DNA of 64,000 bases from Escherichia phage JP4. The notes under the pieces are model-generated. The model searched no databases and was not told the origin of the DNA. It saw nothing but the letters and a program-made list of their open reading frames with translations. Both the position numbers and the translations under genes were made by a program. The stretch is taken from sequence record PQ330092; one strand, 5' to 3'. Shown here in pieces: positions 18,141 to 20,536 of this stretch; the first letter of the stretch is position 1; each line of letters opens with the position of its first letter.

Positions 18141-18171
18141 TTGTAGACAAACCGTAAGAATGTGATATAAT
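18141..18171 (+). promoter_or_regulatory. Sigma70-like promoter with extended -10 (tagaca ... TGaTATAAT)
   Basis: -35-like tagaca, about 16-nt spacer, TG-n-TATAAT about 40 nt upstream of the clpA-like ATG. Confidence 0.55.
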
Positions 18172-18211
18172 GTTTATTAATTAGAGTGACGTGAATCACA
18201 TAGGAGAATAC

Positions 18212-20500
18212 ATGAATCTTACTCAATTGTTCAAAAAAAGCGACGAACTGGCAACATCTCTAGGTCATACATTCTTGACTATTGACCACGTAAGTGCCAC
18301 AGTACTGACTATTGATAGCATCAAGAACGTATTTGAAGATATGAACATTGATGCAGACAAACTGCACAACCGCCTGATGAACTATCTTAAAAATACAACA
18401 GTTCCACATGCACCAAAAAGTGTTAAAGATGAAGACGCGAATCGCACTTCACTTCTAGTGAATCGCGTTGTACATGAGCTTTCTAAAAAATCAGTTATTG
18501 AACAACTAAAAAGTGATGATTTTTCGATTGATGCATATTTTGTTCTATTCGAATGTCTGTCTTTCCCTAACACAGCACTAGAAGCTGCGTTAAAAGAAGA
18601 AGGTGTTAGCTGTACTGAAGCTGCACGTGCATTACAGAAACACGTTGAGTTACTTGATAAGGGTATCAACTTACAAAGTATTAATGACGAACCGATTGGA
18701 GATAAAAAAGTGGCCCAACAGCAGCAATCATCTAAACAAAAAGGTTTGGAAGACTATACAACGAATCTAACTGCTCTTGCAAAAGAAGGCAAACTAGATC
18801 CTATGATTGGTCGCCAGAAAGAATTGTCTGCATTGATTGAGACTCTTGCTCGCAAAACCAAAAAGAATGCTATTCTCACTGGTGAAGCTGGTGTAGGTAA
18901 AACACAAATCATCGACGGGCTTGCACAAGCTATTGCTGATGGTAACGTACCTGAACACCTGAAAGACGTTGAAATTCTTTCACTAAATGTTGGTGCATTG
19001 ACTGCTGGTACTAAGTATCGTGGTGAATTTGAAGAACGCATCGACAATTTGCTAAAAGAACTAAAGAAACGTGAAAATACTATTGTTTTCATTGATGAAA
19101 TTCATATTATGGTTGGGGCTGGTTCCGCAAGTAATGGTTCTATGGACATGAGCAATATGCTTAAGCCAGCACTTTCACGTGGTGAGATTCGTGTAATTGG
19201 TGCAACAACATATGATGAATATCGTAAAAATATCGAGAAAGATAGTGCATTAACTCGTCGTTTTATGAAAATTGACGTAGTTGAGCCGACAATTGATGAA
19301 ACTCGTGCAATTGTTAATGGTTTGAAACCAACGTATGAAAAATTCCATAATGTTGAGTTCACATCTGATGCAATGGATGCTGTAATTTCTCTCAGTGATA
19401 AATTCCTGAAGAATAAGCACTTCCCAGATAAAGCAATTGATCTAATGGATGCTGCTGCGGCTAAAGTTCGTTCACGTGACAACAATAGTAAGCTTATTAC
19501 TGCCAATTTGATTCAAGAAGTTGTTGCTGGTATTGCCAATTTGGATATCAACGTGGTTGCATGTACTGAAAGTGATCGTATGCGTAATCTACCAGATGCA
19601 CTACGCTCACGTGTATACGGTCAAGAGGAAGCTATTCAAAAATTAGTTGATAACGTGATGGTAGCTCGTGCAGGACTGCGTGACAAATCTAGTGTTCAGG
19701 GTGCATTTATGTTTGTTGGACCATCTGGTACTGGTAAAACAGAAATTACCAAAGCATTAGCAGACGCAACTGGTGCGGAACTCATTCGCTTTGATATGTC
19801 AGAATTTTCTCAAGAACATACTGTTTCTAAACTAATTGGTTCACCTCCAGGTTATGTTGGTCATGATTCTGGTAACGGTTTACTGTTGGATAAAATTGAG
19901 CAGTTCCCTAATGCAGTACTGTTACTTGATGAAATTGAAAAAGCAGATCGTAAAGTACTACTAACCTTCCTACAGGTTTTGGATGAAGGTCGTCTGACTG
20001 GTTCTCAAGGTAAAACTGTATATTTTAATAACGTAACTGTTATTATGACTACAAACCTTGGTGCGGCTGATTCAACAAAGCGTAGCATTGGTATGAGCGG
20101 TAGTGACACTGCACAGGACAAGGCAATTAAAGCATTCTTGCCACCAGAGTTTATTAACCGTATTGATAGTATCGTTACGTTTAAAGACCTAAGCAGTGAA
20201 GCTATTGACAGCATCATTGATAAGTTCATGGGTGGTTTGAATGAACAAGTCAAAGACCGTAATGTTAAAGTTACATTAACAAAAGCTGCACGTGAATGGC
20301 TTGCGAAAAATGGGGTAAAAGTTGGTATGGGTGCACGTCCAATGAAACGTACCATTGAACAAAACATTCGTGTGCCACTAGCTAAAGAAATGTTGTGTGG
20401 TTCACTTGTGAATGGTGGTAACATTACATTTGATGTTATTGATGGTAAAATCGGTATTAAGCCGAAACGTACCAAAGCTGTAGATAAAGCACTAGTATAA
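18212..20500 (+). CDS. clpA: ClpA-type two-ring AAA+ unfoldase (Hsp100 family)
   Basis: Start moved to ATG with RBS aggaga. D1 Walker A GEAGVGKT, Walker B IVFIDEIH; D2 Walker A GPSGTGKT, Walker [11 protein letters not shown]; no ClpB middle domain; long blocks match ClpA ([43 protein letters not shown]); IGM tripeptide at the ClpP-docking loop position. Confidence 0.9.
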
Positions 20501-20504
20501 AAAA

Positions 20505-20536
20505 AGAAAAGGAGAGCATTATGCTCTCCTTTTTTT
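20505..20536. terminator. Bidirectional rho-independent terminator
   Basis: Hairpin ggagagcat-t-atgctctcc followed by TTTTTTT, preceded by an A-run. Confidence 0.7.

Follow-up and report, generated by a model that had tools for sequence, protein, structure and literature searches.

Escherichia phage JP4 encodes a ClpA-like AAA+ unfoldase that, on balance, probably serves as the ATPase ring (unfoldase-translocase) in a ClpAP-type protease of the phage's own. The window (the whole stretch of 64,000 nucleotides that was analysed) belongs to an Asteriusvirus jumbo phage, a giant phage of E. coli of the 121Q/PBECO4 type; its identity to 121Q is 98% along most of the sequence and 93-97% in the tail-fibre region, and Rfam and tRNA scans of it returned no matches.

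The gene itself is already known. The cassette has 99.8% nucleotide identity to 121Q gp581, which has been labelled "ClpA-like" since 2014 and carries an annotation in both GenBank and RefSeq; its family is PHROG 4871, and the gene is annotated in 121Q, PBECO4, RaK2, GAP32, CBB, and dozens of later isolates, and has been discussed in genomic and comparative papers (PMC6102473; PMC7824862). As a sequence feature nothing new is added to it here, and its classification is unchanged; the points added are the co-occurrence of a trio of Clp genes, a common promoter class, a variable docking tripeptide, and altered positions in the phage ClpP. The features of the locus are as follows (coordinates are those of the window).

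18144..18149, + strand: -35-like hexamer TAGACA of the clpA promoter, class [GA]AC[AG]-N12-14-TGnTATAAT
18163..18171, + strand: extended -10 element TGATATAAT, 16 nt past the -35 hexamer, kept in relatives
18202..18206, + strand: Shine-Dalgarno sequence AGGAG, 5 nt before the ATG and kept, with the ATG, in relatives
18212..20500, + strand: ClpA-like AAA+ unfoldase gene, 762 aa plus stop, orthologue of 121Q gp581
18212..18661, + strand: N-domain of diverged ClpA type, aa 1-150 (Clp_N match, clade profile, helical in the model)
18662..18766, + strand: flexible Gln/Lys-rich linker, aa 151-185 (pLDDT <50 for aa 157-176; least conserved segment)
18767..19546, + strand: AAA+ module D1 (Pfam match, clade conservation, motifs)
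18881-18904, + strand: D1 Walker A GEAGVGKT, aa 224-231
19013-19024, + strand: D1 pore loop KYRG
19082-19105, + strand: D1 Walker B IVFIDEIH
19256-19264, + strand: D1 Arg fingers RRF
19547..20446, + strand: AAA+ module D2 with D2-small domain (Pfam match, clade conservation, motifs)
19718-19741, + strand: D2 Walker A GPSGTGKT, aa 503-510
19850-19861, + strand: D2 pore loop GYVG
19919-19945, + strand: D2 Walker B LLLDEIEKA
20087..20095, + strand: IGM tripeptide, aa 626-628, aligned with the ClpP-docking IGL loop of E. coli ClpA
20156-20167, + strand: D2 Arg finger NRID
20330-20341, + strand: D2 sensor 2 GARP
20504..20536, both strands: intrinsic bidirectional terminator, core stem GGAGAGC/GCTCTCC, A-run upstream and T-run downstream

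The reading frame extends from an ATG at 18212 to a TAA stop at 20500 and specifies a product of 83.6 kDa. The first-pass annotation had described a full-length gene with a 763-aa product; the gene is indeed full length, and the protein has 762 aa, 763 being the count with the stop codon. An alternative in-frame GTG start at 18191 (769 aa) was rejected; it has no Shine-Dalgarno sequence and is not kept in relatives. The gene is under strong purifying selection (dN/dS 0.04).

The product is a full-length class-I Hsp100 protein of the ClpA type, not ClpB or ClpC. Pfam matches on the whole protein comprise AAA, AAA_lid_9, AAA_2, and ClpB_D2-small, and a scan limited to the N-terminus also recovers Clp_N, its first repeat only (24.5 bits; cut-off 20.7); a profile of the clade's N-domain finds the E. 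coli ClpA N-domain as its best match (E 7e-9), ahead of ClpC and Hsp104. The catalytic motifs are 90-100% conserved across 113 clade members; profile searches and motif conservation agree with the initial description of a ClpA-type unfoldase with intact Walker A and B motifs in both AAA+ modules. Among proteins of solved structure, E. coli ClpA is the closest match (E 3.5e-180) and aligns in one stretch (aa 17-741 to 20-734), whereas alignments to ClpB and ClpC break into two, so the phage protein has no M-domain; at the M-domain insertion site 48 residues stand against 50, and the predicted structure has no long helical insertion, which bears out the proposed lack of a ClpB middle domain. Among NCBIfam models TIGR02639 (ClpA) scores highest, at 753.5 bits; this is below its equivalog cut-off of 993.15, and NF008263 likewise falls short (655 versus 1350 bits). 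The AF2 model superposes on the ClpA protomers of ClpAP complexes with TM scores of 0.81-0.84 (46-48% identity). A fold search with the full model places full-length ClpC chains on top, its E-value being unable to split ClpA from ClpC; the assignment to ClpA over ClpC was therefore made from sequence identity and the missing M-domain.

The putative ClpP-docking loop is flexible and contains a hydrophobic-Gly-hydrophobic tripeptide, IGM in place of the IGL of ClpA, as was noted for the IGM at first pass; alignment to E. coli ClpA confirms this, with I626-G627-M628 opposite I617-G618-L619 (aa 624-629 have pLDDT <50 in the model). IGM is rare, occurring in 2 of 143 aligned ClpA-type sequences, one of them the query itself. 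The loop is kept in all 113 clade members, and its tripeptide varies far more among them than among cellular ClpA proteins: at position 1, 110 members have I, M, L, or V and three have T; Gly occupies position 2 in 83% of the 113, the 19 others having Ser or Asn (17) or Ala (two); and position 3 is Ala or Gly in 16 of 113. This variability could mean that docking has been relaxed or lost in some lineages.

Candidate partners are encoded elsewhere in the genome. No clpP or clpS was found in the window (tblastn, best E 0.3), and the first-pass annotation had suggested that the protein could dock onto host ClpP; the absence holds for the window and fails for the genome, since 121Q encodes both a true ClpP (gp464) and a ClpS-fold protein (gp48) outside it, and these two co-occur with ClpA in approximately 70 Rak2-like phage records. 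gp464 matches PF00574 with 141 bits over profile positions 2-179 of 182 and has an aligned, intact Ser-His-Asp triad with the active-site Ser in AASMG; ClpP models (E 2e-45) are preferred to the head-maturation model (1e-13), with the ClpP equivalog cut-offs missed. A separate T4 gp21-like prohead protease is present in 121Q (gp601). Another protein, gp473, was considered as a second ClpA partner and set aside; it is weakly ClpP-like (E 2.8e-5) and begins with a hydrophobic, signal-like segment. Compared with E. coli ClpP, the phage ClpPs have a clade-specific 25-aa C-terminal extension and are changed at positions that we take to form the docking pocket (Y60T, F82S [also Y/C/N], and L114G). 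Loop position 3 of the phage ClpA and ClpP position 112 pair as Met with Leu112 and as Val or Phe with Phe112; with five genome pairs, too few for a test, this covariation is a lead only. ClpP homologues were detected by virion mass spectrometry in CBB (one peptide) and PA5oct, a sign that ClpP may have a further role or another one.

The ClpS-like protein gp48 scores 24.7 against the Pfam ClpS cut-off of 23. Its family profile has significant matches in the PDB (E < 1e-4) to ClpS chains only (best E 3e-8), and the first 36 PDB matches of its AF2 model (pLDDT 86) are all ClpS (TM 0.88-0.92; rmsd approximately 1.1-1.3 A for the best). The protein also contains a 63-aa N-terminal domain and a 40-aa C-terminal extension. 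If, as we presume, the N-degron pocket of E. coli ClpS consists of N34, D35, T38, M40, and H66, alignment indicates that D35 and T38 are kept in gp48 and that N34 is replaced by D, M40 by A, and H66 by N; these five presumed positions are nearly invariant within the phage gp48 family. Both gp464 and gp48 are 99-100% conserved in some 21 closest relatives, and the numbers of phage records agree across the three genes (approximately 70 for ClpA at >=60% identity, 71 for the ClpS-like protein, 69 for ClpP at >=60%), with matching genus counts. The three genes are scattered in the genome and do not form an operon.

The clpA-like gene is a monocistronic promoter-gene-terminator unit, as first described: an isolated plus-strand gene between minus-strand structural operons, its flanking genes (16608-18101 and 20538-30539, both on the minus strand) belonging to tail and baseplate operons. 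The gene occupies the same position in Asteriusvirus, RaK2, CBB, and Munch, although their proteins have diverged by 25-40%, the neighbours in all four being a structural operon with a T4 gp15-like and a 500-aa gene and a gene for a virion protein of approximately 3330 aa. The phage ClpA is not a virion component: its phAPEC6 homologue, gp246c, is missing from the 62-protein virion proteome of that phage, in which the neighbours gp244, gp245, and gp248 are present. The terminator, predicted earlier to be bidirectional, also serves the convergent gene for the 3333-aa virion protein; it folds strongly on both strands (-20 kcal/mol, z -7.6, on the plus strand; -17.3, z -6.0, on the minus strand) and is kept in four lineages, CBB and Munch having compensatory changes in the stem.

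The clpA promoter-like site has 11 of 12 consensus matches and an extended -10 element, in a region no richer in promoter-like sites than shuffled sequence, so that the scan by itself proves nothing; transcription is inferred to start near 18178. The -10 element occurs at the same position in RaK2, CBB, Munch, Ecwhy_1, and UE-S1, and the -35 is TTGACA in Ecwhy_1 and RaK2, GGGACA in Munch, and TGGAACG in CBB. The site belongs to a phage-specific promoter class ([GA]AC[AG]-N12-14-TGnTATAAT) with 31 sites against 2.25 expected, members of which also precede genes for SSB, primase, exonuclease, ClpP, and the late sigma factor. The ClpA promoter reads GTAGACA-N13-TGATATAAT and the ClpP promoter, 34 nt before the ClpP start codon, TTGGACA-N13-TGATATAAT; no member of the class lies directly before the ClpS-like gene. 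The earlier description of an early-type, sigma70-like promoter thus stands for the sigma70-like site; the early type calls for revision, its -35 and 16-nt spacing being those of the 31-site replication and late-sigma class. A strong TTGAC -35 with a longer spacer is found at sites among small unannotated genes and tRNA genes. In CBB, the orthologous promoter had already been assigned by that phage's authors to a "divergent RpoD-like" class. Clp is not mentioned in the PA5oct omics paper or in the papers on phAPEC6, Sharanji, and fEgEco12, and the expression class of clpA is read here from promoter motifs.

The suggestion of an acquired function needs revision. The phage ClpA is 41% identical to host E. 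coli ClpA, no nearer than to the ClpA of a Myxococcales MAG (42%), and falls in a clade of at least 113 sequences (54-93% identity) that is separate from cellular ClpA and sits on jumbo-sized contigs wherever these are complete. Given this low identity, the size of the clade, the dN/dS of 0.04, and the fixed synteny in four lineages, the gene is old among these phages and not a recent capture from the host.

Three other readings of the gene were weighed. That it is a mis-called ORF, or a host-derived remnant in decay or without function, is very improbable; the NCBIfam score under the equivalog cut-off and the K64-1 record, matching in two pieces (possibly through a frameshift or sequencing error), could be thought to point that way. 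Of 49 related records, 45 have the gene at full length; this, the low dN/dS, catalytic motifs that are invariant or nearly so in 113 sequences, and a conserved promoter, Shine-Dalgarno sequence, and terminator effectively refute the reading. It also seems unlikely that the phage ClpA retargets host proteolysis by docking on the ClpP of E. coli, either by itself or within mixed complexes, while the phage ClpP-like gene is otherwise used. An intact, full-length phage ClpP is encoded in every clade genus and shares the promoter class of ClpA; the ClpP homologues in CBB and PA5oct virions could mean a separate, structural or maturation role, but a T4 gp21-type prohead protease is already present in these phages. 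IGM differs from IGL by Leu to Met only, which makes docking on the host enzyme chemically plausible, yet among phages of enterobacterial hosts the tripeptide drifts (IGM, IGV, MNM, MGM, LGL) away from the cellular hydrophobic-G-F/L pattern, which is not expected if the loop must fit a conserved host pocket, and the presumed pocket is itself changed in the phage ClpPs (Y60T, F82S, L114G). Docking on host ClpP would be compatible with a phage-owned protease, the two not being mutually exclusive.

A ClpP-independent chaperone or unfoldase that remodels or unfolds phage proteins during tail and baseplate assembly, for example the neighbouring 3333-aa virion protein, is a doubtful alternative. It has a precedent in E. 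coli ClpA, which remodels RepA without ClpP, and the genome contains other chaperone-like genes (two GroES-like and two DnaJ-like). The identical place beside structural genes in Asteriusvirus, RaK2, CBB, and Munch is consistent with it, as is the order in the PA5oct-like phage MIJ3, where clpA follows dnaJ and precedes structural genes; gene order is, however, broadly conserved in these phages and may say nothing about function. The promoter belongs to the replication-gene class and not to the late TAAATA type of the surrounding structural genes. Part of the clade has a degenerate tripeptide (IGG, IGA, MNM), but the loop itself, absent from ClpB-type chaperones, is found in 113 of 113 members, and ClpP and ClpS co-occur with ClpA. 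A translocase or assembly function has been proposed by Iyer et al.

In the preferred reading, a phage-owned protease, ClpA would form hexamers whose IGM loops dock on the phage ClpP (gp464 in 121Q), and the ClpS-like gp48 would bind the ClpA N-domain and select or redirect substrates. These 350-kb phages have a long infection cycle, and the machine may be active in its pre-late phase, where it could degrade selected proteins of host or phage or act in quality control. Our literature search on phage ClpA and phage-encoded ClpAP/ClpS found genomic remarks and nothing biochemical or genetic. That ClpA, ClpP, and the ClpS-like protein constitute a private, orthogonal protease insulated from host ClpAPS is improbable on present evidence. 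Three observations are compatible with the idea: the docking interface may have co-evolved, the phage loops being of the form hydrophobic-[G/S/N]-Met and the presumed pocket positions of the phage ClpPs being altered; the ClpA N-domain has diverged from its host counterpart, as has the ClpS-like protein; and the adaptor is enlarged, with Ala at the gatekeeper Met and two extra conserved domains. Such an adaptor could bring specific host proteins (e.g., defence or stress factors) to the protease in mid-infection to be destroyed. Should the trio prove to be a protease that needs nothing from the host and has its own adaptor, the virus would bring a complete machine for regulated proteolysis, and this would offer a handle on the host or phage proteins that need removal during jumbo-phage infection.

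The phage protein shares with E. coli ClpA (PDB 1KSF, 6W1Z, 7UIV) the order of N-domain, D1, D2, and D2-small; the Walker, pore-loop, Arg-finger, and sensor motifs; and the position of the docking loop. Identity is 41% overall (18% in the N-domain, 51% in D1, and 44% in D2), and the linker between the N-domain and D1 is longer and Gln/Lys-rich; unlike E. coli ClpA, the phage protein is encoded by a virus, together with a viral ClpP and a ClpS-like protein that is enlarged. ClpC, ClpE, ClpB/Hsp104, and ClpV also have two AAA+ rings and Clp_N-type N-domains and give strong sequence and fold matches, but they contain an M-domain or other insertions, align in two stretches, and all score below ClpA; ClpB and ClpV, in addition, have no ClpP-docking loop. 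The ClpA genes of Rak2-like phages (121Q gp581, PBECO4, phAPEC6 gp246c, RaK2 ORF069, GAP32, CBB_235; PHROG 4871) are the same gene as that in the window, with identical synteny, promoter position, and terminator and no difference of substance. Other jumbo phages (Atu_ph07, PA5oct/MIJ3, phage G) likewise encode an AAA+ unfoldase with ClpP, and sometimes ClpS, as dispersed genes: Atu_ph07 has seven Clp-family genes; the PA5oct-type ClpA is 41% identical to the phage ClpA described here, has a canonical IGF loop, and is co-transcribed with dnaJ; and phage G encodes ClpXP, with ClpX rather than ClpA as the unfoldase.

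The window is part of an Escherichia coli Asteriusvirus jumbo myophage of the 121Q/PBECO4 type ("Rak2-like"). Twenty deposited genomes match positions 18100-20600 at 99.6-99.8% identity, and the related 121Q genome (around clpA, window coordinate = 121Q coordinate - 280045) is 98% identical to the whole window, with 93-97% in the tail-fibre region (window 1-10800, including the gene for a colanic-acid-degrading protein); this lower identity suggests that host-range modules are swapped between isolates. The clpA cassette comprises the following features.

18144-18171, plus strand: promoter-like site TAGACA-16 nt-TGaTATAAT, from a motif scan
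18202-18206, plus strand: Shine-Dalgarno sequence AGGAG
18212 (ATG) to 20500 (TAA), plus strand: ClpA-like ORF (762 aa, 83.6 kDa)
20504-20536, both strands: terminator hairpin (plus strand, -20 kcal/mol, z -7.6; minus strand, -17.3 kcal/mol, z -6.0)

An in-frame upstream GTG (18191) was rejected as the start; it is not conserved in relatives, whereas the Shine-Dalgarno-ATG arrangement is. The first-pass annotation described a full-length gene of the ClpA class with intact Walker motifs, and domain, motif, structure-model and conservation results all bear this out. The observation is real; its interpretation has to be corrected. The feature is already known: the gene and its family name have been recorded before, as has even the promoter in phage CBB.

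Pfam domains AAA, AAA_lid_9, AAA_2 and ClpB_D2-small were matched, as was Clp_N once the N-terminus was scanned by itself. Of the NCBIfam models, ClpA (TIGR02639) scores highest, over its full length and above ClpB, ClpV, ClpK and ClpG; its 753 bits fall short of the curated equivalog cut-off of 993. The best match among solved structures, E. coli ClpA (E 3.5e-180), aligns in a single stretch (aa 17-741), whereas ClpC, ClpB and Hsp104 split into two because of their middle domains. Walker A and B motifs, pore-loop tyrosines, arginine fingers and sensor 2 are all found and are 90-100% conserved across the 113 ClpA-like sequences of the phage clade; an N-domain profile built from the clade has the E. 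coli ClpA N-domain as its best match (E 7e-9). An AlphaFold2 model (pLDDT 80) lacks the coiled-coil insertion and resembles ClpA protomers of ClpAP cryo-EM structures (TM 0.81-0.84, 46-48% identity); the linker and the docking loop are of low confidence, as expected of flexible segments. That the ORF is decayed or mis-called is excluded by the conservation data, and we give this explanation next to no credence.

The same annotation proposed that the gene had been acquired. In a search of 5.8 billion proteins, the top 114 matches (54-93% identity) were named Rak2-like phages or, where complete, jumbo-sized contigs, and beyond them identity falls to 45% and below. Clustered at 50%, the closest representatives share 53%, 49% and 45% identity, followed by ordinary ClpAs at 38-42%, the sole named one from a Myxococcales MAG; E. 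coli ClpA, at 41% overall, is no nearer. Because the clade is separate, the host protein is no closer and dN/dS is 0.04 (against two congeners), these comparisons show clpA to be old and vertically inherited in this phage lineage and not recently captured. Elsewhere in 121Q, about 14 RCC1-like paralogues, which carry the annotation "regulator of chromosome condensation", form a tandem array on the minus strand (positions 19089-33255 of genome piece L004; 121Q 117089-131255).

As had been noted, clpA is the sole plus-strand gene between two minus-strand structural operons, one with a NUDIX gene, a T4 gp15-like gene and a 500-aa structural gene, the other with genes for a 3333-aa virion protein, a T4 gp6-like wedge, an HNH endonuclease, and gp25-like and gp5-like lysozymes. 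The terminator is indeed bidirectional and also serves the convergent 3333-aa gene (20538-30539, minus strand); its stem is preserved by compensatory changes in CBB and Munch. The 3333-aa ORF, without functional annotation in the records compared, encodes a 382-kDa virion protein seen by mass spectrometry in phAPEC6. The HNH gene (34055-34819, minus strand; "associated with group I intron" in 121Q) is inserted between the wedge and gp25-like genes. RaK2, CBB and Munch have the identical arrangement around clpA. This frozen synteny, together with degenerate docking loops in the clade, suggests a ClpP-independent chaperone working in tail or baseplate assembly, a role we consider rather unlikely. 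The ClpA gene of MIJ3, a distant PA5oct-like phage, follows dnaJ. The clpA product is not a virion component, since its homologue gp246c is missing from the phAPEC6 mass-spectrometry table, in which gp244, gp245 (382 kDa) and gp248 were detected.

Promoter-like sites show no excess in the clpA region, so the site taken alone is weak evidence. Its extended -10 is at the same position in RaK2, CBB, Munch, Ecwhy_1 and UE-S1, paired in relatives with a -35 of TTGACA, TGGAACG or GGGACA. Across the 121Q genome the class [GA]AC[AG]-N12-14-TGnTATAAT has 31 sites, where shuffled sequence gives 2.25, and a single one of them is not on the coding strand; the sites precede genes for SSB, primase, an exonuclease, ClpP (gp464), an ATPase (gp563), ClpA and the late sigma factor gp591. 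Where the -35 is a strong TTGAC and the spacer longer, sites lie among small unannotated genes and tRNA genes. A supplementary table of the CBB paper places the orthologous site (Porf_235) in the "divergent RpoD-like" promoters, a group concentrated at genes for DNA synthesis and at the gp55-like sigma factor. On these motifs we read the promoter, described earlier as early-type and sigma70-like, as pre-late and probably of a middle class rather than generically "early". Two further plus-strand members, both GGGACA-N13-TGnTATAAT, lie at 41854-41882 and 46555-46583; the first precedes by 57 nt the gene for the T4 gp55-like late sigma factor (gp591). RaK2, CBB and Munch conserve a minus-strand TAAATA element (window 18133-18138), which stands some 30 nt ahead of the start of the 500-aa structural gene and is similar to ATAAATA, the T4-like late motif described for CBB and GAP32; the gap between that gene and clpA is a divergent promoter region.

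Neither clpP nor clpS was found within the 64-kb window, as first reported; the 121Q genome encodes homologues of both.

121Q 214364-215059: gp464, full-length ClpP (PF00574, 141 bits)
121Q 34461-35006 (genome piece L002, same positions): gp48, 181 aa, ClpS core (Pfam ClpS above cut-off)

ClpP models match gp464 at E 2e-45 and the ClpP-related head-maturation model at 1e-13; a T4 gp21-like prohead protease is encoded separately. The gp48 family profile has significant PDB matches to ClpS chains only (best E 3e-8), and the first 36 PDB matches of its AlphaFold2 model are all ClpS (best rmsd about 1.1-1.3 Å); a conserved 63-aa N-terminal beta/alpha domain precedes the core and a 40-aa C-terminal helix extension follows it. 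An IF3-like gene lies before gp48 and a KTSC-domain gene after. Near the ClpP gene, on genome piece L006, are two further peptidase-like genes, gp473 (22420-23028; weakly ClpP-like, hydrophobic signal-like N-terminus) and gp475 (23356-23952; HslV family, PHROG 1040, E 1e-23). The 441-aa ATPase gp563 (29327-30652 of piece L007; PHROG 1297) may, by annotation name and similar mass, be the counterpart of gp265c, an "ATPase" of 49.5 kDa in the virion list of phAPEC6.

By tblastn, one shared set of about 70 Rak2-like phage records carries the ClpA, ClpP and ClpS-like genes, and the counts agree for Escherichia, Klebsiella, Salmonella, Erwinia, Yersinia, Pectobacterium, Serratia, Cronobacter and Xanthomonas. 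The ClpA homologue of Klebsiella phage K64-1 (AB897757.1, 47698-49970) and the ClpP homologue of CMSTMSU (MH494197.1, 52672-53363) match in two pieces, possibly through frameshifts or sequencing errors. We lean, somewhat beyond an even balance, towards a ClpAP protease that the phage encodes and makes before the late genes, in which the clpA product is the unfoldase and gp48 the adaptor. Docking on host ClpP, as originally proposed, is compatible with such a protease and seems to us improbable.

The reported IGM was confirmed: I626-G627-M628 aligns with the IGL of E. coli ClpA. Among 143 ClpA-type sequences (50%-identity representatives, the query and E. coli ClpA), IGF occurs in 81, LGF in 18, VGF in 10, and IGL in 4, with further tripeptides among the rest; IGM is found in two, one being the query. 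Every clade member has the loop, but it varies: I, M, L or V (T in three) at position 1; Gly in 83% and Ser, Asn or Ala in the rest, at position 2; Met in 51%, with Val, Phe or Leu in others and Ala or Gly in 16 sequences, at position 3. Phage ClpPs share a 25-aa C-terminal extension and differ from E. coli ClpP at Y60 (T/V), F82 (S/Y/C/N/M) and L114 (G/T), which we take to be IGF/ADEP pocket positions. With five ClpA-ClpP pairs compared, these changes would fit a private interface that co-evolves and, equally well, relaxed docking in some lineages.

Literature searches found no functional study of a phage ClpA. For jumbo phages, Iyer et al. listed ClpA, ClpX, ClpP and ClpS, suggesting that they act as translocases, in assembly or in targeting the host. 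Against E. coli, the ClpA-like protein is 18% identical in the N-domain, 51% in D1 and 44% in D2, and gp464 is 36% identical to ClpP, with the Ser/His/Asp triad aligned. In gp48, H66 of E. coli ClpS is replaced by Asn. The gatekeeper Met40 of E. coli ClpS corresponds in gp48 to a nearly invariant Ala.
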